A stretch of DNA of 64,000 nucleotides, from positions 2,108,001 through 2,172,000 of the forward strand of contig JAYWIR010000016.1 in assembly GCA_036172245.1 (NCBI GenBank), read 5' to 3'. Under the pieces are notes generated by a model. It saw only the letters and a list, made by a program, of their open reading frames with translations. It was not told the DNA's origin and searched no databases. Positions 7,509-55,954 of the stretch are shown here, in pieces (position 1 is the first letter of the stretch; each line of letters starts with the position of its first letter). The DNA is from Raillietiella orientalis. Taxonomy: Eukaryota. The position numbers and the translations under genes are program-made.

Positions 7509-10500
7509 TAAAGATTTATCAAGATGAAAATTCCATCGTAACAATAAACAATTATAAGAAAATACTTTTATTCACTTGATGTTTTATTCTGTTCACAGCA
7601 ATGGAAACAATTCTTGATACTTTTCCAAAATCATAATACCAAAAAAATGAAAAGGTTAATCAAATAAAATGGAAGGACTAAATAATGCCATAAACTGCAT
7701 TATTACACGATTCATTCATTAAATTACAAAAAAAAAAAAAAACAATTCTCGATATTTCATAACTAAATGAATAAACGTTCGAAAGAAAACTTTAAAAAAA
7801 TATTGGCGTATATCATCAAATTCTAAATATGTATTTTCTTCATCTGCAATCTTACTTGTATTTAGACCGGTCTATCTAAAAATTATTTTCAAAGTAATTT
7901 TCCTACTTTATATTGTAACGGTGATCATGGTTATGTCTCCCATCGTCCATAGACAATATTCCATATTTTCCACCAATGTTTTTTGTTTCAATATAAAAGA
8001 TAATGTTTCATTTTGATTTGATTTTAGCAATGTATTTCATTCATAAAATAGTCCTCCGCTTAAATTATCTAGTATATACGGAATCATAGCAAAGTGTACA
8101 TGCTGGAATAAAAAAATGATCAATATCAAAAAATCCAAGTGAACTTGAAATAGAATCTACAATCGTTTACAGACCTTTTACCTTGGGTTGAATATGTCTA
8201 ACTATAAATCAGACTTATAAATCTCCAAAAAACTAAATAGTACATCGAAAAGTCACCTCATGACTGCAGTTCAATAATAATAATCTTGTAATAAAAAGAG
8301 AAAACAGTTTATTTGAACTTCCTCTCTGTGTTGCTTTTCAGTCTGTGAGATGAATTGATTGTAGGACTTCGTTAGGAGACAAACTAATCAACTACTGACA
8401 TTGGTTTCATAGATAAAAGAAAAGAACTTTATTGTAGTCTTACAGAGACTTAAGAATTTTAAAGCAGCTAAGATATCGGACAATAAGTTTTATGTGCATG
8501 TTTGGTCAAATTTGCAAACAACATACCTCTTCGAAAAAGTTGAAAGCTAGGCGCTCTGACATTAATACATGGACATTGTATTTATAAATTTAAGTTGTTG
8601 AAAATTATGTTCTTTCCTATTTATTCGCAATACTTAGTATTATAAATGACCAGTATTTTTATTCAATTATGATAAAAAAAACAAGCTACTTGAATCACTC
8701 GACACAGCATTTTTCATTCAGCTTTCAAAAACGTAAACGAGAGGATATCAACTCTGAATCTGTTGAAATTAATAAGATATTACTTGAAAATATTATTGAA
8801 TTCAGAGGTATTTTCGATGATAATTGTAGGAAATGTTAAAAAGAATTATCATGCTTACGTTCTGAATCCAAACTATGTTTGAAATAAATATTATCGGTAT
8901 AGCATTGACAGAACCCTGCTCCAATTTTGGTTTTACATGGTTCAAAGATGAATATGACGATGCTTATATTAGTAGTTTTTTTCTTTCCCGTCCTAACACG
9001 GGGCGCTCAAAGGTGCCCATGAAAATGTAATTCAAAAATTGAAACTCAAATATAATTTGAGAATTTATATGTACTTATCAAACCACTTATTACACACTTT
9101 TATGTATCTTGATTCAGAAAAACAAGTGTAAAACTTTGTGAACATTGCAGTTGCTTCTCTGAGATTCCTACTTCTCCATGATCTGAATCCATGTCTCTTT
9201 ATGTATTCAGTCGATGGATAGCAAGTGTGCCATAAACTGCAAGTTAATGTTACATTGTCTCAATTGAATTATATGTTTTATTATTATGGACATAGGTTTT
9301 CATCCATAACGTAAATGTCGCGAAAATAACTGATGGCATGCATCATCAAACATACAAAAATAAGAAAGTCCAATATGAGAGTAAATGCTGAAATCCGCTT
9401 CCGATGAAAGTTGAAACTTCAACATATAAATTTTTAAATGCCATGAAATTTGTTTATTGAAACTGAGTGTTTCTCTCTTTTGAATTTGTGAATGAAAAGG
9501 ACTCTCTAAACAGAACTTATTGATCCATGCTTTGGAATGTTATATTGAATTCCAGCAAACAAATTTTTTTTGAAATCAATACGGCATATTTGTATCATCC
9601 TTCCTTGATTAGAGTGTTTAGTTATGAGCATTTGAGCATTATTGGAGTTTGTAGAAGCAATAATCATTAACAGGAAATTGTTGAGGCGATTATAATGATA
9701 AGTGAAACAATGCCAACAAACTTATGTTTCGAAAAGAGAAATCTTGCAATCAGAGATCACTTCTATCTGCGAAACGGATTAAGCGAACCAAAACTTATTT
9801 TGCTAGTGCTTGTACTTATACTGAAAAGATCCTCCGTGATGTAAAACGAAAACTCCATAACGGCGATACCTCAACAGTAGCTTAATCATTTTGTCAAATT
9901 CACTTGCCGTAGAAATTTAAATTTTTCATAGGAGGTTTGCTTTCAGAGTATGTAATCTCATTTATTAGTGAATAATATATGAGATCAAATACTATCTTAA
10001 AGGACTATCTGATGCTTTTGATTGTAATGGCAGTTTTTCTGCTCAACCTGCTGGACGTGAAACCATTTCCCATCTACGAATTCTATCCACTTCTAGAAAA
10101 CTTCAAGGCACTTGCATTTATTTTCGAACTTTGTGTAGATGAGAAGACATTGGATTGTATTTGATTCATTCTGGAGTCTGAATATCGCGATGCTTCTTAA
10201 ACAGAGAAAGTTCTTTTCTTTGATTCCAGTTTATAGTAAATCCAGTCTGCATTTTTTCCATGCATTTGTTCGGTTTTCTTTTTGATCATAAAGCAGTTAT
10301 ATTTTTAGGATAGCATTTGTTAAGCCTTTGCCTATGCGCTATTTGTATTGCATGTGCTATGTGGGTTTGTGTTTGCAAGATTTTTGTTTTCTAAATAACT
10401 GTTTTCACATATGGCTAAAGTCTGAAAACAAGATCTCATTCAAGAAGATAACGGCAACACTAATAATTACACCGTGCTGTGCAAGCAATTTTTTTTAAAT

Positions 10501-13342
10501 GCATGAGTAGTAGTCTTTTGACTCCAAACCTGTGTTACGTATTAGGAAATTTATCGACGATTACGATCCTTGCTGCACAATACCCAAAAACGTCACGAGA
10601 TAGAAGTTTATGGTGATATGTATTTCTTTGGGTTAATTATTTATGTTCTCAAATCAGGGAAAATCCGTTTTACTGTTTGTCGAATTGAAATTATTTTTAT
10701 AAAGTTCTTACAAGCTTAACACTTATAAGTATTAATTGTTCGGTTGAACAAGCATTGAAAATTATATTTAGAAATTCTTGATGGATTGTATATAAACAGT
10801 CATCAGTAATTATAACATGGAGTTCATTGAGGGTGATGTAATTTTCATGGAAATTTACAATAACGCTAATTTCAATTTACATATAACTGTCAATAATTTT
10901 CCCCCTATGTCCGCGGATATTAATCTCGTGTATTGCATTTGTTGTTTCTAGTTATCAGAAATTTATTTCATTACCCTAATATTTGAATTATTTTTCCATA
11001 ATTCTTTTTTGCGCCAGTTAAATTAACAATCAGGTAATATGATTTGAAAAAGGGTCATCAGCCCATCATACAGAAGCATGCTAGAATGGAAGACAAAAAT
11101 ATACTTGGTAGCTGATAACGGAAAATATTGCTTTCATAACCTTGTATGGCTACAGATACAGTGATACTTAGTTTTGAGTGCTATTTTTCAATGAAATCCG
11201 AAGCTTGCGTTCCAATCTCGAGCCCCAAAGATCAGTCAGGAAGAATTACCATGCTACTTGATGAAAATGCCTTGGACCCTGTTAGCTTTGATTTTCTGTT
11301 CCTTTAGTATTTTCATAATTTGCTTTCAAGAAATTGAATAGATTTAAGTTTTCATTTCACAGTCTATAGAAATAAAACAGTAAGAGCATCTGCATGTGTT
11401 AGAACCTTTTTGAATACATTTTGTCTTGTGCTATCATGTACAATTCTGTGGAAACAGCCTTGAAAAAAAGAAATTTCATTGTTGTTAGGTCTTTCTATAT
11501 TTGTTTTAAAATTATATTAGCTACTGTTTATGGTTTAACTTTTGTATTCAAGGTTAATTCAGAAGGGATGCTAATCTGCAACACATGAACTGTGTGTGAG
11601 TTGTGAAATTTTGTTGACAGAGAATATGGTTTCTTTGTGTGTAGTATTTGGCAGAAGCTGGTATCAAGTGAAAATACTTTGATTGATTGTTGTTTGAGGA
11701 AAGTTATTTGAAAATACAAACAGTAGTTTGCAAAACATTTCATGATGTAGTAAAGGTGAAAATTTTTGTGCTTATCACAAAAATTGTGTTTGTGTTTGTG
11801 TGAGTTTTGCTGACAGATGGCAAATTAGGAGAAAGATGTTAAAAGATTTTCAAAGTTAATTATTTTGAAAGTCATTTATCCTGGAAATTTATTCAAAGAC
11901 TGGAAATAAGAAGCTTTGTTGACATAAGGTCTTGCTCGTTGTATTACATGTATTTCATAGTTAATTATATTTTTTCATGTATGTAGCATCATGTTTTTGC
12001 AATTTTATTTAGAAAATCAGTAGAGATCTGTTGAACATTAGTTCATTTAGTGTGATAAAGATGATCAAGATGAATGTGTTTTAAAACTCTTATACATATG
12101 TATGCATTTAAAATTATATCTAATCCAAGTAATTTGTGGTTAAGATTTATTATGATAATTTAAGATTTCATTTAATTGTTATGATAAACACATTAATATG
12201 CTGTTTGTGTTTGTAAGCTAGGTTCCTCCTTCTATAGCTGTTGAAAATTGAATAACAAATTAAGTAATGAATGTATTCGAAAAATTATTGTGATTTCAAA
12301 GAATCAAGGAATAGTTGATTCTTTTCACATTAAATGGAAAAGTATGTTGTTATCTAGTAGTTGTGTGCCATTCTAAAAGAGAATAAATAGTTACAGAATG
12401 AATGCAGTTATACATCCTTTTTGTGGATTTCCAGCATTCTAGTCTGTTTTGGATTTCTTTGAAAATGTTATTTTCCTTTTCTTAATCTTATTTATAAGAG
12501 TTTCAGGTTGTTTGTTGTCATTTTCTTTGAGGTGGAATCCCCTTTTTGGTCATTTTTTCTGGTTTCATCAGAATAACCAAGTTTACTGTTGATTGGGAGT
12601 TAATTTTGTTACCATTGTTTTGTGTATGTAAACCTCAAGTGCCCCTATTTCAGATATGAAAAAATCCAATATTTTGCAAGGTCGTTTCATGTGTATATTC
12701 TTAATTATTTGAAGAAATGATTGATTATTGAAATTGGATACCTACTTTCCTTTTTTGGAATGTTGTATTCTATGATAACTGTAATAATTCTTAATTTTTT
12801 TATATTGTAGCTGCCACATCTGTGGTGCATTAAAATGTGGAACAACACAACTAGCTTTTTGTTCAATGTTGCATTCAGTGGAAAATTTATTGTAACATTT
12901 ATCGTTTTCAAATATTCATTGGAATTTTGCTCAGCTTTGCTTATCTGGTGATGCTTTTGTTGTGTATTGTATATGTTTTCTAAAAGTACATTTAATTATG
13001 TAAACATATTATTTTCTGAGTGTTTCTAAAACTTTCAGCGGAGTGGGAGCATTTTTTGATTTGATTTCATGAAGTCAAAAAGTGAATGGTTGTGTAAAAC
13101 AAATATTTTCTTTAAATTGATTCTATACTAGAAAAGGGCTTATTTTCATAAGCTAAATGGGCTCAAGTTTTATGATCAATTAATATTGCATACTGTAAAT
13201 TTTTTTCACTTTTTTAATATTATGGCTATAAATTGTAATCCATTTTACAGGATTTTCTCAACAAAAAACATTTCATTTTCATAACAGAAGTCTAATTGGA
13301 TTGATCAAAGCAGTTTACATGAGTGACATGTCAAAAGATTAA

Positions 13343-16300
13343 ATGGACATAGTTAATGAAAATGAACTAGTTAAGCAGTTCATCTCCATAACTAATGTTG
13401 ATGAAGAACGTGCAAGATTTTACTTACAGTTAGCATCTGGGAGATTAGAAGTAATAACAGATCTCAATGTGCATTTTGTAATGTTAGCTGAATATGCTCA
13501 TGTTGTTTAGCAAAATGATTAAAAGCTTTCAGAATTTATAAATATCATGTGTTAAATTTTGCTGCCAGTATAGATAATTTAGATCCAAATACTACCATTC
13601 TTATAAAAACAGTTGTGATATATTAGGTTGCAATCTCAAATTTTTTTGAAAGTAATGAAGAGAATCATCAGAGATTCCAGAGTGATGCATTTGATGCAAC
13701 ATCAGTGAACGAGTCTACTGTCATGGAAGTTAATGAAACCAAAAAAAACAATGTACCAGCAAAAGCAAAAGAAACAGGGTAAATATCTTGGGAGGGGAAA
13801 AAAAAAAATTGGTTTATTGCAGTCTAGGTGGGAATAAGTGAAGTATTTAGTCTGGTATAAATGTATTTTTTTTTATCTTGCAAAGTCTTTTGTATGTACT
13901 TATTGCTTCATTTTCTGATTTGTTTCTATTAATTCATTGTATTCTGCTTTGGTACTCATATGGTTAATATGTAGAACTCTTCTGTTTCTAGAAATTAATT
14001 GTGCAGAAGATATCTGAGTTCAAATAATTATAAATAGACTATTTAAAAATTTGGTTAGAAAAGATGAAATATTAAAATCTATTGTTCCGTAAGATTGTTC
14101 AGGGCATTTGATTGATTGGAGAACTGTCAACAGTGGTTGGTGTGGAAGGTGGTTTGGATGAAAGAAGAATGCATATGGGATTGTTGGAAACAGAAGATTG
14201 GTGAAATGGATGTGAGAGTGTATAGTGCTAAGTTTTATATCTTGAAGTATGTTGCTGGTTTTACTGTACCAAAGGATTGGAAAGAGGTTGATCCTTAGAT
14301 TCCTCAGGGATCACAGGGGAAATTGAAAATAGGTTCTCCTGTTTCCAGAGTGAGAAGGGAATAGTACTTTTTGTTTAAAGGAAATTGGAACATGAAATTT
14401 GAGTAAAATTTTATTTGTTATTAGGAGTTACAATTTTAACATATGGGGTTATATTTCCTTGGTCATCGAGTATGGAGATTTTTTTCAGTTGGTTGTTGTG
14501 ATGTTGATGAGGATCCTGTGATCAGTGCTCATTTTATGGTAGTCTAGGTCCCAGTTTGCCATGGCCATGATGTGTGGTGTTTACAAGTATTTCACAGAAC
14601 CTTGATATTTTGGGTTGAATATGATTCGGTTTTTTAGGCTTTTGATAAAGTCATATTGGACCGAGTCTTTGTTGTCACTGGTTAGGTTTTTCACGATTAT
14701 GTGTTCTCCGTTATAAAGATGGGCTGCATCAGCTTTCTTGCAGCTTTGCTTGTAGATGGCTTGTCTGTGAAGAAATAGGAATTTGACAAAAGTTGTTTTT
14801 CCGCTGTTGCCTCCTTCATCTTTGATCCAGAATATGTTTGTGAGGTGTAGAGGTTTTTCTAGGTGTTCTAGGATTTGGAGTTGCCATTCACATAATCAAA
14901 GTCCTTTCATAGGGTTGGGATGAACATTGTTACATAAAATTCCGTAGCACTCATTAATAAAATTGATGTTTGTTGCATAAAATTTGGTATGATGTTCTAA
15001 GAGTAGTTTTCAGCTTTCCCACCTTTTATGAGTTTGAGAATCTGTGGGGATTAGATTAAGTATTGGAGGAAGCATACCTTTTTTTCGTAGGATTTGTTGT
15101 AGGCGTCATCATCAAGTGATCTGAATGCCTATGGTGAGTTGTCTTGTTTTAAGCAGTATTCAGTATTAGGCTGTGAGCTTCCTTTGGAAGTTTCCAGGTG
15201 AGTTCTTGAGAAAGGGGATTGTTTCATTTGTGACAAGGTGCATGCTTTGTAAAGCTGGTGGTAACCTTGGAGATGTGGAGTTGAGTGTATTACTTGATGA
15301 TGAGTTGTATTACCAGGATGGTCATTGACCTTGACCACAATACTTGAGAAACCCTGATAATGGTAATTCTGATAAGGTCCGGAATGTGAGGTGTGTGGGA
15401 AAGTGGTGTTCATGGATTTGTAGTGCTCAGTTGGAATTTGCGTAAAGGGGAGGGGGGGGGGCATTAATAATGATTGGATTGTTGTGTAAGGATTAGTGGG
15501 AAGTCAAGCTTAGTACACAGTAATTAGTTTGCTGTAAATAAAAGTGGCAACACAAGTTATTGCTGTGCCGTAGGTTTCATGTATGCAGAATCAAAGCAAC
15601 TAGATGTTAGTCAAACTATAAATTTATATTACCATATGAATGTTTATAGACTTTATGTAGATATTACTGAATCAACTTGGAGTTAAATAAAATGCAGTGT
15701 GGAATCAAACAGCTGTACTTTTTAATTGTTAAAGACAAATCCATGTCTGATACATTTCAGTGAATTTTTGAAGTTATGGAGTACAAAAAGTAAAGCTGTT
15801 CATGGTTTGAACCACCAGTTTCAAAATATTCGTCTGTAAAATTATTCAGCAATTAATATAAGTTATGAATAGGAAGCGTTTCTTAATATTCGAGATTTGC
15901 TAATAATCACGAGCTCCACATCTCCAAGAACATTAGAAAAATAGTTATATATTTCAGTGCATAGCCAAATATAAATGCATATTCATAATGAAAGTAGGAC
16001 AGATCATGATTTTGTATTATTTTGTGAACAAGAAAGTTCCATAAATAGCTGAAACACTAAAAGCAGGTTCACTGATATTATGACATCATTAAAGATGTAA
16101 AATTGCCTATTTCATATTTCTTTTCACCTGTATCCAATGATTTAAGACTTTATAGCAATGTACTGTTTTACGTATTTGATTAATATACCAAAAATTTCAA
16201 ATGATGGACGATTTAAAAGCTCAGGTATTGAAATTTAATGCTCATGCGATTTTCTGTGGTGTAGCATGGAAATTTTGATGTACTGTATATTTTTAGAATA

Positions 16301-17783
16301 GTAACCAAGATAAAAAGACTTTACATAGATTTTATGTGATCTGTTTATGATTGATTCCTTTTAAGTATTTGTTTGCATTTTTGTGTAACAACAAACATAA
16401 ATGGGGTCATTTCCCCAGCAGATTCTTCACCCTGTTAAATCTTTCTTGAGTTGTAAATAAAAGTGTTATATTTGAGTCTACTGTTTATATCTATTGTAAA
16501 AGCTACTTTTTTGGCATTTTTAGTCGATTTGCTACGTTATCCAGCTTACAAGAGAAAAATAATCATTCAGATGAGCAACAAGCATTCTATGCTGGTGGCT
16601 CAGAAAGAAGTGGCCAGCAAATCTTAGGACCCACAAGCAATAAAAAACTCGTGGAAAATTTTTTTAAAATTGCACGGGAGTAAGTATACTCTTTGCTGAT
16701 GATTTAAAATTTCCAGTAGACATGCTGCAAGCAGCACTTCTCCCAAGCCAGAATCTGATGACAAATTTTCTGGTTTGGGCTACAGACTTGGAGATTCATC
16801 TGGATCACAAAGTATTATATCTACTGGCCACCTGATATCATTTTTGTTGATACTGGTTTCCAAAATTTTAGTTGTAGGTGCTCCATCAGATGTTGAAAGT
16901 AAACCAAGGAATGTAGTTTTAAAGTTATGGAAATCAGGATTTAGTGTTGATAATGGGAATCTGAGAAGTTATGCAGATGCTGCAAACAGGGAATTTTTAG
17001 ATTCAGTTCAAAAAGGGTATGCACTTGCTTTCCTTAACATATAATCTTGAGATTTTGGTTTTTTTTCTAATGGTCTTCAATTTCATCACTGTATATGTCA
17101 GCTTTTTCTCTAGGTTTCAGTTTTTTAAGTGCGTTGCAGTTAATAGAACACACTATAAAAAGTCCATGTGTGAAATGATTTAATTTATATTGGTGCATTC
17201 ATGTTTAGCCATGTTCCACCTGAATTACTGCAATATACCGATAAAGGAATAATAGATTTGAATTTGGAAGATCATACAGACGAAGAATTTGTGCAACCTA
17301 AGTATCATTTAACACCTTTCACAGGAGAAGGTCATATTTTAGGAAGGTAACTAAGTAAATATGCATAGTTATCTAGCTATGTTCATTTAGTCCTACTCCA
17401 AAAATTATTGGTGAATCATCGATTGCAAGTGATGCACGACAGAGTGATATGGATACACATGAAGAAACAGCAAAGGCTATGTTTCCTGTTGATTCTAATC
17501 TACCATCTGCCAATTTACAGATAAGATTAATAGATGGATCAAGGCTAATTATTCGAATGAATAATAATCACACACTAAGTGATTTGCGCACATACATTCT
17601 TCTGTATCCTTTATTATTTATGCTAAAATGTCATGTTTCCTATTAAGCAGTGCTAGACCACAGTTTGCTTCCCAGCCATTCTATTTGATGACAACATTTC
17701 CTAAAAACATACTAAACGAAGATTCTAAAACTTTGGAAGAATTGGGTATACTGAATGGAACCATACAACAAAAACTTATATGA
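13343..17783 (+). CDS. NSFL1C: NSFL1 cofactor p47 (UBA-SEP-UBX p97 adaptor), 8 coding exons
   Basis: Exons 13343-13450, 13627-13778, 16524-16679, 16720-16811, 16878-17016, 17209-17346, 17391-17603, 17651-17783. Motifs: UBA-like FISITNVDEERARFYL, QAFYAGGSERSGQQILGP, FSGLGYRLG, SEP LKLWKSGFSVDNG, SHP FTGEGHILGS, UBX LQIRLIDGSRL...MTTFP. The exon 4 donor position is uncertain. Confidence 0.95.
14485..15464 (-). pseudogene. rep: Endogenous CRESS-DNA virus Rep (HUH endonuclease + SF3 helicase), decayed
   Basis: RCR motif II TPHLQGY (15261-15281), HLETSKGS..N.EYCLK motif III (YCLK 15147-15158), then WQLQILEHL...IFWIKDEGGNSGKTTFVKFL (Walker A 14794-14814), YDFIKSLKNRIIFNPKY, PHIMAMAN (motif C) and KMSTDH. 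In-frame stops at about 15129, 14896 and 14581, plus at least one frameshift. Confidence 0.9.
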
Positions 17784-20700
17784 ACAAGGGATTCAAAACT
17801 TCTGCGCAGAAAGGCATTATGTTTTTGAATAACTTTATAATTTTGTGTTCTTGCTGTTCATGTTACAATCCGAAAAATATATCTGAATTATCATAATAAA
17901 CTGGCAGATGATTAAGGACCTTCCAGTTTGTCCCTGATTGACACTAGAATCCTCTTTGAATGTTTCTTAGATCACATAGCTAGGAATAAAGGGAAGTTAA
18001 TCGGTCACCACCCTTTAACTTTTTTTCCAGATATCTCTACTATCTCTACTTTCTTCCTACCTCTCTCTTGAGATGAACATTGGTCCATTGCACATAGCTG
18101 AGAAGAGTCTATATTCCTAAGGTGATTGCCTGGGAAATGTGGCCACATTGTCTGCATCCAAGTCATCGTGAGCATTTTTTGCTTTTTTCATGTGCATTCG
18201 CGTATGCTTCCCTACTGTTTCGTCTTGTGCATGCAAGCAATCTCATATGCAAAAATATGAGTTGATCCTGACTCACCTTCCTGTCACACTGATGCTCATT
18301 TTCCTTCTATCCTCAACATGGAGGTCTTGTGAATTACGTCTGTGCAAAGAGGGCAGCAAAAAAAAGAAAATAAATACGTTAAAATAGATTCTTTTCTATT
18401 TGCAAGTGATTCTTCGGAAATATTCCTACATGTGAGGCATGTGGAATATTGCTAGATAGCTCCATCCAGAAGGGATGGTTATTGGTGCTCATGTTACTGT
18501 ACTGGGCACCTGTTCCTTGCAGGCTATGGTACGAGTTTGCCCATCGTCTAGCATAACTATTTCTAGTTTCATCACACCTTCCATTCCACTCATACAAGCA
18601 GCTGCACTATTTTTTCTGCTGCTGCACCATAACTTCCATTTCACATGTAAGACTAGAAGGAAAGAAGATCGGAAACATTTCAAAAACCAGCGAGTAATGG
18701 TGATTCTACAAGCATTGCCGAATGCTTTGGGGCGAATTAATGGATAGCAAAACATCCCCCTTCTTTTCATTTCCGTGTTTTAGTTACTTGCTGCTCCAGG
18801 CTGAAATTGTATTGTACCAGCATCTGGCTTCTCAACAGTTATGAGTGGCTGAAAGAAACCATCCAACTGCTAATCTGCTAACACAAAGAGAGCTAACGTA
18901 CATTAAACACTGAACGATAGCAACAGAGCTATAAAGTCAAATGGCATTTTCCCTCCATTCTGCAGAACACTGATGCTCTTGAATGATAATTCTAATTGTT
19001 GCTCTGCTCCAGAAAAAGAAAAAAAAAGAAATGCCATTCTGTCGAGGCAGAATGGCATTATTTCTGCAGAAGAGGCGCTTGGTGAGTGTTTTGGCTACTG
19101 CCATTGCAAACTCTTCCCACCCTGGAGGTGTCTTAGTGAGGAACAAGAGACCCTATAGAAAAGTGTCTGCATGCAGGAGGGAAAGGTGTGCAAAGAAATA
19201 CCACAAGAAGGGCAAAAGGGTAGACTCGAGCAAGTGAAAGATTAGGCGGACACAAACTGTACACCATAGTCCTTTATGACGATGGCACAGTTAACTTAGG
19301 GGTGCAGTAGTGGAAAGCAAAATGGATATAAGTAAACTACTGGAATATCTGATCCTTTAAAAGAACAATCAGTGTACTGAGGTTTGCAGATGGGAATTCA
19401 CTGAGAGGCTCAAACTAGAAATGTCCAAGCATGCTCTGGGATGCACATTGTGGGGAATAGTTGGCAGTAGATGTCCCAGTTTCAATCCTAAAGAGGGGAA
19501 TGGAGGGAAAAGGAAGTTTAGCAATGAACAAGTAAGAGTACTTCCCAAACTCCCAAAATCAAAGTACAGATACTCTTTGTTAAGAAAATGAAGGTCAAAA
19601 GCATTTTTTCTTGGAAGGTGCTTTTTGATGCATCCAGATTTTCTCATCCATGGATGGCATCAAATCTCTTCGTTCATCTTCTCTGCATCCCACAAAACTA
19701 TCTCCTTCCTCCTGTCTTTCAAGTTTTGTGGCTAAATGCTCCTTTAGTTTTTGGCAAACAGGACAATCATGCTCCCATTTGGGCTTTCAAGATTACTGAG
19801 GGGCTTTCCACAAAAGCGAAAACTTGAAGTGCATTGAAAGAACTCCATGAAAGAAGTAAGGATCCTAGTGAGCATTTACTGTCCTGTTAGGTGCTGCTGG
19901 TTTGCACAGGTTTCATCTCTGATCTGTTTTAGAAGAGTTCTTACGGATCAGAAGAAAACTATTAGCATGACCATCTTCTTTAAAAAGTCCTATTTGCTAA
20001 AGCTCATACATTCAAATGTAAAAACCACTAACTGCATGATAGGTCATCTACAAATTAGGTAATATTGAGCAACCAAGCAACCAGACTCGTATAGGAATAA
20101 CTTGTGGCCAGAAAAGAAAATAGGTTATGCTGCATTAAAATCAGATCCAACCATAAAGATTATAGAGATTATTCTTACATAAATGGAAAAATGTCTGTTT
20201 CAACTCTTGATCTAAAATTGAATTTATTTAAATGTGAAAGTCAGCATTACAATTTTCAGATTCTAGCATTGTACAGCATATTTGCAATAAGAACTGATTT
20301 TTCGATGAACATTTTGAAAAGCAAACGAAGTGGGTGAATCATCAAAGTTTTATAGGTAAATGCTGTCATAGCCTTTGGACATACTCTGTTCTACGTGTTT
20401 TCACGTAGTTTCTAGGTATCTTGCAATGTGTTTTTGAAATTCTTTCAAAAAGCAACATATACTGTAGACTACTTTGAAGATTAACTATGCAAAAATTATG
20501 ACTGAGCATTTTAAAATGTTACATATCTGCTGAAAAGCTACAGATGACCCCCTGCAAACATTAATATGCCAGCAAAGGCATTTGGATTTTACATATCCCA
20601 TGATAAAGAATGCCCAAATAATCTTTTCTTCAGTAGGAGCGTAATGAGTTTGATGTGAAACAATTTATACTTCAACTTATTCTTGAAAATTTCAATAGAT

Positions 20701-53106: not shown

Positions 53107-54126
53107 CTATTCCTTTTCTCTTATCCTCAGCGGGACTGAGAGGTCATCAAACTCCGCCTGAAGCTTCTTCCTTGATTTCTCGAGTTTGTCATTAGTTCCC
53201 TGAAGATCCTGAACCAGTCTGCGAGAACACTCAAAGTCTTTGCTCATCTTCTTTCTTGCCTCCTCCAGGGCTCCAATCTGCTCAACCTTCTCTTCCAGGT
53301 GCTTCTTACTCTCTTCCAGCTGGGAGGTCAAGGAAATAATCTGCTTCACTAGGATATTGTTGCTGCTTTCGTACTCTTCTAGCTGGTCCTTGAAACCTTC
53401 GTTTTCTGATTCCAGAATCCGTATCCGTGAGCTCAGTGCAAGCTTCTGCTTCGTTTCTTCATTAAGTTGGGTCTGCACATCAGCCAACTGAGCCTCCAGA
53501 TTCATGGCAAATTTCATGCCAGAGGCGGCTTTAGAGTCTGCATCTTCCATCTGCAGACTCACAGCTTCCAGCTCAGTCTGCAACTTTTGCAACCGATCAG
53601 ACAGTTCTTCACGCTTGTTATCTGACTCTTGGAGTTTCATGGCTTGATCACTCAACTGCTGCTCCAGTTGTTTGCGTTTTCTTTCTAAGTCCTGCCTATA
53701 GCTAACAGCGCTCTTGATTTCGTTAGCCATGTCCACGTTTTCTGCTTCGAGAATCTGCTTGCTCTTCTCTAGGGTGGTCTTTGCCTTCTGCAATGAATCC
53801 AACTGCTCATTTAGGGACTCCAGAGCGGAAGCATGCTTCTGCCGAATGCTGGAAATCTGCTGCTCATGCAATATTTGGGCATCCTCTAGCTGCTTCTTCA
53901 GTGTGGCTAGCTCCTCCTCACGTTTCGTGCGCAACTCTTTCTGCACAGCTGTGGTGTCCACGTAGTCCAGGAGCTCGCTCTTCTGAGCTTCCAATTCTTC
54001 ACTTAGATCCCTTTTTTGTTGCTCTGCTTTGTTTCTTGCAATCCTTTCTGCATCTAAGTCTTCTTGCACCTCTGACGGGTTTAATTCAAACTCCCTTAGG
54101 GCTTTCAGAGCTTGAGCTTTACTCAA
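53107..54126 (-). pseudogene. Intronless fragment of non-muscle myosin II heavy chain (zipper/MYH9-10-like) rod
   Basis: EVQEDLDAERIARNKAEQQKRDLSEELEA...QKELRTKREEE...EETKQKLALSSRIR...DKLEKSRKKLQAEFDDL matches the non-muscle myosin II rod. There is no motor domain, no ATG at the ORF start and no flanking myosin exons, and homology ends abruptly. Confidence 0.85.
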
Positions 54127-55954
54127 GATTTCATTTTTCGTAATTTTTTCTTCACATTATTCAAACTATTGATAATATTAAGAAGGAATGAAAAGCAGAG
54201 CAAGGAAAAGCAAAAAGCATCGCGTTCATCTGCAGCCGACGAGAAAAGCCACATTTTGCAGCTTATTCCTTCATCTGCTTCGCAATATATCTTACAACGG
54301 TGTGGAGACAGAGGTAAGAGGGCAATGTTTTTTCCTTCCCATCTGCGGTCATTGAAGAAGTCTATCTGGCATGGGCAGATGCTATTAAGCAATTGCCTTA
54401 CCTTTCAAATGCTTTCTTTCACAGCAAAAAAATAAGCTGATCCTCTGGGGAAGGCAACTTTCTGACTTGAAGTATCCAGCACTGCAAATACGGAGAGAGA
54501 GTATCAGGGACATAAAATTAAGAAGCGTTTGAAACGAAGGTATGTTTCCTCCTTATTGAGTAAGTACGTCTGCATCCTTCATCTGCATGGATATTTGCCA
54601 TTTATGACTGGGCCTGAATTCCTGAGCTTAGCTGCACTGCTACTGAACACAGCAGCTCGTGTCTCTGAGAATAGTCGACTCGAAAAGATGTGCTGCCTTT
54701 CCTGATGCTCACTACCCTCCGCGTTTTCGTGTTTCCTGAATTCTTATTCACGTCTACACCTTTATTCCATAGTGTTTTTTCTTTCATTTTAATAGATTAG
54801 TGGCTTGGGAGAATGTTTGGAATTCCAATGGGGAGGGAAAATAAATGGTACGAGTCAAGTGTTGCCGCACTTGATGTTCTTTCGGACTTATTTGGCTATC
54901 TATGGTTCATAATCACCCACTCATTGTCCATCTTGTTGAGAATATGTATAGCAAGTAGCAGACTTGGAAATTTCCAAGTTTTGGATTTCGTTGCTGATCT
55001 TTAATTGTTCTTGGAAAAAAAGCACACATGGAGAAAAATTTTGAATAAATGTGACCACAAAAGTGCAGTGTCTTGAGCGAGGTCAACTTATCTTAGCTTA
55101 TTATCATAAAAGGAAAGCGGTGGACTGTTTTAGCGATGGTTATTAAATTACGGGTACAGCAACTGACTTGGAAAAGGTGGTGTCCATTTCGGACCATCTT
55201 GCTATACCATCATATGTTGCTATTTTGGATACTGAGAATTGTGGAATTAGTATGTTAGCAATACAAGTCTGTTTCTCACATGGGTGTACTTGGAACTCTG
55301 AATTATGTGGAAATAAGGTGTTCTGTGCACTGGAATTCCGTAGCTCGTGCAGTTGAATCTGTTGAATTGAATATAGCGCAAATTCTTAGGTAGTACTTGT
55401 TTTTCTCATATAATAAACTTCAGGAGATCTTTTTAGCGGAATCCATTCTTTTTTTTTTTCTTCTTTTGAACCTGTAGCAGTTGCGAGTTTGTCACCCACT
55501 TTCCTCTGATAATTCCTTTGTAAGCATTTGAGTTCTTGTGATGGCGCTGGTCATGAGACTGCACTTCTGTGGAGGTTTCATCTAGTGATTTTGAGACTTC
55601 ATGGTGCACATACACAGGTCGAGAGAACACAGTGAATACTCATTTCCGGAATGAGACAGAGTAAACGAACCAGCAAAAGGGCTTCAAGCTGCTAGAATGT
55701 GGCAGAGCATGAAAGAACTCCGCTTCAGAGTGCTTTTTTGTTGCTTAGAAGTCTTATCAGGTGACCCATTAAGATCAGACGTGATCTCGCGGTCAATTAT
55801 GATTTTGCAAATAACCTCAACCATCCCTAGAGCGATTTGCTTTGGGCAGCTGTGCCTGTTGCGAATCATTTAAGAGCTTGCATGTAGGATTCTAATGCCA
55901 TTTTGGATGCAAAATGCTATGTAACAAAGATCCTTCTTTTTTGTCTTCGCAGTT

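Follow-up and report, generated by a model that had tools for sequence, protein, structure and literature searches.

Most lineages of circular Rep-encoding single-stranded DNA (CRESS-DNA) viruses recovered from metagenomes have no known host. Endogenous viral elements (EVEs) derived from the Rep genes of cressdnaviruses were reportedly described in eukaryotic genomes by Liu et al. in 2011 and by Kinsella et al. in 2020. The parts of two surveys that deal with such elements portray Rep-like sequences with several stops and lowered GC as a known pattern, and use these elements to infer the hosts of virus lineages (PMC10193959; PMC9615429); the draupnirvirus EVEs are one such set, according to the portion of the survey devoted to them (PMC10193959). 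Here, we describe a decayed Rep gene in a stretch of 64,000 nucleotides from Raillietiella orientalis (assembly GCA_036172245.1, contig JAYWIR010000016.1, positions 2,108,001 to 2,172,000 of the forward strand; hereafter the window, numbered from its first letter). The gene lies on the minus strand, within an intron of a p47/NSFL1C-type gene carried by the plus strand, and very probably represents an EVE.

CRESS Rep fossils are already well known; the present one belongs to a lineage without a close known relative. With the elements described in the relevant parts of the two surveys (PMC9615429; PMC10193959), it shares a chromosomal Rep fragment, several stops, lowered GC and CpG, and the lack of Cap that is frequent among them. 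It differs from them in its identity of at most 41% to anything known, in the absence of a lineage that could be named, in its position in the intron of a housekeeping gene and in the apparently one-stranded character of its decay. The systems most similar to it are unclassified metagenomic CRESS Reps (P0004-P0008, P0118 and others; IMG/VR loci L001-L005), found on contigs of 2-4 kb, which have the same helicase block pattern (W..D..GN.GKT / ADIA..YNGE / LKNG..FSPKY / PHV..AN / S.DRW) and a Viral_Rep-type endonuclease. The fossil differs from these proteins by an identity of only 30-41% and by its long terminal branch.

A Rep gene on the minus strand

An earlier note on this stretch, made from the sequence alone, had proposed a degraded CRESS-DNA virus Rep with an HUH endonuclease followed by a superfamily 3 (SF3) helicase, on the basis of six short motifs. 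All six are present on the minus strand and in the order given: TPHLQGY and YCLK within a 124-codon open frame (15129-15503), DEGGNSGKT and LKNRIIFNPKY within the open reading frame (ORF) 14581-14895, and PHIMAMAN and STDH within the ORF 14485-14580. The proposal is borne out by Pfam Viral_Rep, by phmmer and by a profile of the clade.

The endonuclease remnant (15132-15284, minus) matches the Pfam Viral_Rep profile over positions 33-81 of 82, the part that comprises motifs II and III, with 37 bits (E 4.2e-9; the Pfam cut-off is 26 bits). Its HLQ (motif II) and YCLK (motif III, YxxK) align to this profile and to Rep chains in the PDB, and both endonuclease motifs are kept. The fragment matches Viral_Rep only, Gemini_AL1 being absent from it at E≤1 in Pfam; by its sequence, the endonuclease belongs to the Viral_Rep (circovirus/nanovirus) type, as opposed to the Gemini_AL1 type.

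The linker or oligomerisation region and the SF3 helicase remnant occupy 14485-15018 (minus). We read the helicase frame through, with X at the stops, and searched it exhaustively with phmmer against 1.84 billion representative proteins, which returned 3233 proteins at E≤1e-3, of which 681 reach E≤1e-10. When the 20 best matches were scanned with Pfam, Viral_Rep was found in 16, RNA_helicase in 15 and both in 13. A clade profile was then built from 107 full-length phmmer matches and searched in all frames of 13800-16200. Its positions 154-344 match 14458-15018 with 171 bits (E 1e-53), a score that is partly circular because the members of the profile were found with that same region. Its positions 76-127 match 15132-15284 with 30.5 bits (E 7e-11), in a frame differing from that of the helicase, and this second match is independent of the helicase-based recruitment. 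Endonuclease and helicase are collinear and on the same strand. The ESM Atlas neighbours of a 104-residue helicase piece are Cressdnaviricota clusters (score 0.92). A word-indexed protein search gave no match for the helicase frame, and a Pfam search of this frame did not find RNA_helicase and returned DUF5906 only below threshold (E 0.003). Judged by the profile and phmmer scores, the likeness to CRESS Reps is far above chance level.

The recognisable Rep extends from 14485 to 15284 and comprises about 267 codons in two frames. The description of the gene as near full-length, with some 325 codons, does not hold, as homology is limited to these 267 codons and motif I is missing. The segment 15285-15464, which had been counted as Rep, is open in one frame, yet it has no detectable Rep similarity, and the same is true of 15285-15503 as a whole.

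Breaks and decay of the gene

The Rep copy is a pseudogene without an uninterrupted frame. Read with X at the stops, 14485-15105 (minus) forms a single frame of 207 positions, and the ORFs 14485-14580, 14581-14895, 14896-15009 and 15010-15105 are parts of this one frame, split by stops. The helicase frame is interrupted by a TGA at 15010-15012 (X32), a TGA at 14896-14898 (X70) and a TAA at 14581-14583 (X175), the last between the PKY block and motif C. A further TGA at 14485-14487 (X207) is close to the natural end of Rep; in the alignment, the relatives continue past the DRW block for a few to some tens of residues. The two matches are in different frames, the endonuclease in minus frame 1 and the helicase in minus frame 0, so that at least one frameshift must have occurred between 15018 and 15132. 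This junction of the two frames (15019-15131, minus) also holds the stop at 15126-15128 that closes the endonuclease frame.

In the alignment, the helicase has kept Walker A (GNSGKT), motif C (AN) and the LKN..F.PKY block, and two residues conserved in the relatives, the Walker B acidic position and the arginine of the C-terminal DRW block, have been replaced. The fossil retains 46 of 69 family-conserved columns (66.7%), as compared with a mean of 80.6% (standard deviation 6.5) in the relatives, only 2 of 107 of which score lower. It keeps 19 of the 26 near-invariant columns and differs at the other 7. The observed/expected ratio of CpG in the fossil (0.26-0.28) falls within the range of the flanking intron (0.2-0.44), while 87 related viral Rep ORFs have 0.98. 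The stops, the change of frame, the replaced residues and the loss of CpG together favour a long stay in host DNA over contamination by a live virus.

Position within the p47/NSFL1C gene

The earlier note had placed the Rep antisense within an intron of p47/NSFL1C, and the searches confirm this position: the plus strand encodes UBA_4, SEP and UBX domains, and the exons on either side are matched by p47 chains of the PDB. As the host gene is on the plus strand and the Rep on the minus strand, the Rep is antisense to it. Exon 1 (13343-13450, plus) contains the start codon and a UBA-like domain (Pfam UBA_4, E 1.6e-9). The sequence and its ORF place exon 2 at approximately 13627-13778 (plus), preceded by an AG acceptor and followed, after about 13778, by a GTAAAT donor. 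Exon 3 (16553-16680, plus), which begins with FYAGGSERSGQQ, is part of the ORF 16450-16683 (plus), the one that matches residues 75-128 of the PDB chains named 'NSFL1 cofactor p47' (E 1e-7). Downstream on the same strand are an ORF with the SEP-domain exon (16703-17044; Pfam SEP, E 1.4e-11; PDB 'NSFL1 cofactor p47', E 2e-12) and an ORF with the UBX-domain exon (17377-17646; Pfam UBX, E 1.2e-5). The succession of UBA-like, SEP and UBX domains, in that order, is that of a p47/NSFL1C-type gene.

The intron that holds the viral block would run from 13779 to 16552 (plus) with GT..AG borders, about 2.8 kb; its splice sites were read by eye, so that the assignment of the exons is putative and their ends approximate. 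The Rep block is contiguous with the p47 exons within this one intron, in this single assembly. There is no evident effect of the element on the p47 gene. Searches of the collections used here gave no orthologous locus, and our literature search found no paper that combines NSFL1C with an endogenous viral element.

Elsewhere in the window, a 349-codon open exon (53107-54156, minus) codes for the tail of a non-muscle myosin II (Pfam Myosin_tail_1, E 9e-89). Its identity to the proteins among the matches listed is 46-55%, with arthropods first and vertebrates at 48-50%, as would be expected of an invertebrate animal that has no near annotated relative in that collection; in the ESM Atlas, the myosin fell into broad clusters in which Chordata are commonest. 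No Rfam family was found in the window.

Viral relatives and placement

The earlier proposal of an unclassified virus lineage agrees with our results, as the nearest relatives are themselves unclassified. Among the 1.84 billion representatives, the best identity to any protein is at most 41%, and the closest relatives lie at 30-41%. Nineteen of the 20 top clusters are on contigs of 1.3-3.9 kb and one is on a contig of 716 kb. The labels among these clusters are one 'Methylococcales bacterium' metagenome-assembled genome (MAG) and two that read 'hypothetical protein' only. The clade-profile search gave 46 proteins, one of them with a virus name, 'uncultured marine virus'. In IMG/VR, a query with a single protein returned no relative, and a seven-row alignment used as the query retrieved 134, the best with 39% identity over the helicase. 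The 77 IMG/VR loci are mostly contigs of 2-3.7 kb, with a few of 5-18 kb. In a helicase tree (FastTree, 150 sequences, 177 columns), the terminal branch of the fossil is long (1.28; median 0.67). The support for its neighbours is weak, at 0.40 for P0118, then 0.73 for P0006 and then 0.82 for a clade of 8.

Several of the sequences retrieved deserve separate mention. The best phmmer match (P0002) is a protein of 354 residues on a 3.9 kb contig, with two tandem CRESS-type helicase domains and no endonuclease; the label assigns it, as a hypothetical protein, to a Methylococcales MAG, but the sequence resembles wrongly binned viral or virus-derived DNA more than it does a bacterial gene. A helicase-only Rep relative of 267 residues, 39% identical to the fossil, occurs on contigs of 716 kb and 475 kb (P0009/P0159), possibly a further case of a Rep-derived insertion into a large genome. 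Two metagenome loci of 64.6 kb and 36.7 kb (L078 and L079), 99.4% identical to each other, show 78% identity to the LKN..PKY block over 18 residues; we rejected them as spurious, as no Rep profile matches them at E≤1.

With the Reps of the Circoviridae, the fossil shares the general plan of endonuclease, oligomerisation region and SF3 helicase. The PDB chains 2hw0, 8h56, 5xor, 6wdz and 7lar, which we take to be those of porcine circovirus 2, match the endonuclease fragment with E 6e-7 to 2e-6. For 2hw0, 5xor, 6wdz and 7lar, this attribution is consistent with the part of PMC10193959 that bears on them. The likeness does not extend to the helicase: the clade profile covers only residues 14-163 of the 314-residue chain 7lar, leaving out its helicase, and no Rep chain of the PDB matches the helicase region of the fossil at E≤10. 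The results thus sustain the earlier view of a helicase that does not resemble the circovirus one.

The picture is different for chains 2hwt and 6h8o, presumably nanovirus endonuclease domains, which the clade profile matches with E 3e-22 to 5e-22, but which the endonuclease fragment of the fossil matches only with E 1.5. Taken alone, this fragment is closer to the chains that we assume to be circoviral (E 6e-7) than to those that we assume to be nanoviral. Nanovirus helicases have the layout DR.I.W / KN / KY / AN..PD / S.DR. The proposed likeness of the fossil to a helicase of the nanovirus/alphasatellite type is a putative resemblance in this layout.

Extent of the foreign block

The borders of the insert were estimated by a change-point analysis of the G content of the plus strand. 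A distinct block from 14100 to 15574 stands out, with 26.9% G inside and 16.3% outside (twice the difference in log-likelihood, 58.7), and the insert is thus probably about 1.5 kb long. Upstream of the Rep similarity, the block would include 15285-15574 (minus), which leaves room for the N-terminus of Rep and an upstream region and matches neither Pfam nor the clade profile. Beyond the Rep stop, it would include about 385 bp (14100-14484, minus) without coding similarity to Pfam or to a set of 193 non-Rep ORFs from the 77 related IMG/VR loci, which we compared with 12000-18000. The ORFs and frames of the flanks gave no match in Pfam. No convincing terminal direct or inverted repeats and no convincing target-site duplication were found around the block, and there is no second copy of the Rep block within the window.

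A perfect inverted repeat of 15 nucleotides links 15266-15280, the core of motif II (PHLQ), with 15914-15928 on the other strand, 633 nucleotides upstream. It has a blastn E of 0.15, and the surroundings of 15914-15928 are devoid of Rep likeness; the repeat is probably due to chance, although it might also be what is left of a second fragment in inverted orientation. In the one DNA sequencing run listed for the window, which contains 0.11 of the sampled words (no RNA data set was listed), contigs matched a few exon and intron stretches and did not reach the viral block; a candidate joint among them (13818-16359) was discarded as not usable, as one of its sides is a run of 22 letters at 80% likeness.

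Base composition and apparently one-stranded decay

The composition of the fossil was compared with that of the 87 related viral Rep ORFs, all of them from distant relatives, which makes the ancestral composition uncertain. The frequencies in the viral ORFs are.267 for A,.246 for C,.243 for G and.244 for T, with a lowest G of.171 and a lowest GC skew of -0.21. In the sense strand of the fossil Rep, C (.253) and T (.226) are unchanged, G has fallen to.136, A has risen to.385 and the skew is -0.30. About 44% of the sense-strand G has been lost relative to the relatives. At third codon positions, G is.08 in the fossil versus.23 in the relatives. Relative to these, the dinucleotides CG, CA and TG stand at 0.17, 1.73 and 0.78, respectively, as if CpG had decayed to CpA instead of TpG. 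Among the 17 conserved columns in which the fossil is one base away from the family codon, 6 require G-to-A, 1 C-to-T and 8 another change, and 2 are ambiguous; 6 further conserved columns need more than one base change. In terms of the p47 gene, the pattern is one of C-to-T on the non-template strand.

The skew is unevenly distributed in the surroundings. The left flank of the intron (13783-14099) shares it, with a GC skew of +0.33 and a TG/CA ratio of 3.7, both from small counts. The right part of the intron (15575-16550) is without it (GC skew +0.07, TG/CA 1.16), and so is the stretch 17650-20000 of the p47 gene (GC skew 0.0, TG/CA 1.05). Upstream of the p47 start codon, 10000-13342 has a skew of +0.14, plus-strand G exceeding C, with a TG/CA of 1.55 and an observed/expected CpG of 0.43; this may correspond to a 5' transcribed region or to promoter-proximal skew.

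Three candidate causes of the seemingly one-stranded decay can be named, which we do not rank firmly: methylated gene-body DNA may have been deaminated in association with transcription; the viral DNA may have been deaminated while single-stranded, before it was integrated, either by an enzyme or spontaneously; or the strands of the ancestral virus may already have differed in composition.

Origin of the element

We consider it very probable that the Rep block is an endogenous viral element, that is, a part of the replicative form of a CRESS virus that was integrated in the germ line and is now decaying as intron DNA. In this scenario, a small circular Rep-encoding single-stranded DNA virus (Cressdnaviricota) would have left about 1.5 kb of its double-stranded form in germ-line DNA, in intron 2 of p47/NSFL1C and in the opposite orientation, possibly by non-homologous joining of replicative-form DNA. 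Neutral decay of the intron would have followed, bringing in the stops and the frameshift, removing catalytic residues and CpG, and letting the composition drift towards that of the host. The insertion would also have become fixed in the germ line. At present, the fossil most likely has no role beyond being spliced out with the intron.

Several observations weigh against this interpretation. Profile positions 1-75, including motif I, were found by the clade profile in no frame of 13800-16200, and the upstream frames gave nothing in Pfam; the copy is thus either truncated at its 5' end or decayed past recognition there. A capsid remnant is missing as well, the best of the 193 non-Rep ORFs reaching only E 0.014 against 12000-18000. 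The nonanucleotide NANTATTAC does not occur within 13800-16200, and its 12 occurrences in the whole window compare with 9.6 expected. TATTAC is present at 15627 and 15662 (plus), with no stem at either site, and the fold of 15440-15700 gives no origin stem-loop (z 0.19). With neither capsid nor origin, nothing but the Rep ties the block to a whole virus genome. None of the 20 top clusters bears the name of a virus family, and no family could be assigned. Finally, copy number, presence in other individuals or species, germ-line fixation and age are all seen through one assembly.

An alternative account of the decay starts from the same origin. The fossil would stem from a deep-branching, unclassified cressdnavirus lineage once present in the germ line of an invertebrate-like host, and its decay would be almost wholly one-stranded cytosine deamination that took place on single-stranded DNA no later than integration, the agent being either an AID/APOBEC-like enzyme of the host or spontaneous change in the virion strand. 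The adjacent intron, equally transcribed, is without the skew in its right part, which would point to single-stranded viral DNA as the substrate; the left flank shares the skew, and the composition of the ancestral virus is uncertain. We regard this account as unlikely.

The opposite orientations of Rep and p47 also fit a role in defence, as had been suggested: anti-Rep RNA, made as part of the p47 pre-mRNA, could feed PIWI-interacting RNAs (piRNAs) or small interfering RNAs (siRNAs) directed against related viruses. EVE-derived piRNAs are indeed documented in arthropods, according to the relevant parts of three studies (bioRxiv 10.1101/396382; PMC6797480; PMC7161354). However, targeting by small RNAs needs near-perfect nucleotide identity, and the best protein identity of the fossil is as low as indicated above. 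With a protein divergence of at least 59% from anything known, sequence-specific silencing of a living virus is unlikely, and the loss of sense-strand G described above speaks in the same direction. The fossil is, moreover, an old copy, single in the window, in an ordinary spliced intron, whereas the EVE piRNAs of mosquitoes come mainly from dedicated piRNA clusters (PMC7161354) and not from ordinary introns; according to another study, the response to a cognate densovirus does not need EVE piRNAs (PMC7527727). A defensive role thus appears very improbable.

Equally hard to credit is the idea that the Rep block is a copy of a host repeat, either Rep DNA carried by a transposon or a member of a dispersed Rep-derived family. 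The foreign block exceeds the recognisable Rep by about 675 bp, and the relatives on the 716 kb contig and with a tandem helicase indicate that Rep-like DNA does occur in larger genomes. Against this, the block is alone in its 64 kb, no terminal direct or inverted repeats frame it, and neither a transposase nor any other Pfam domain was found in its flanks.

An assembly artefact, in which a contaminating environmental CRESS virus had been misjoined into the intron, is scarcely conceivable: CRESS viruses are common contaminants of sequencing, and the relevant part of a published EVE survey mentions that assemblies suspected of such contamination were dropped (PMC10193959), but an exogenous virus would have an intact Rep, free of the stops, frameshift and lost catalytic residues seen here, the CpG ratio is like that of the flanking intron and not like that of viruses, and the block is enclosed by one intron whose splice sites are canonical at either end.

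Implications

An endogenous viral element of this kind, being a chromosomal fossil, would be direct evidence that a virus lineage reached the germ-line nuclei of a particular animal. It could tie an unnamed group of environmental genomes of 2-4 kb to an animal host, and a comparison with sister genomes would provide a minimum age for the association. If the one-stranded decay resulted from editing, it would bear on the restriction of single-stranded DNA viruses in invertebrates; deamination of single-stranded viral DNA, if true, would turn this fossil into a rare case in which the pressure of deaminases on a DNA virus is recorded outside vertebrates.

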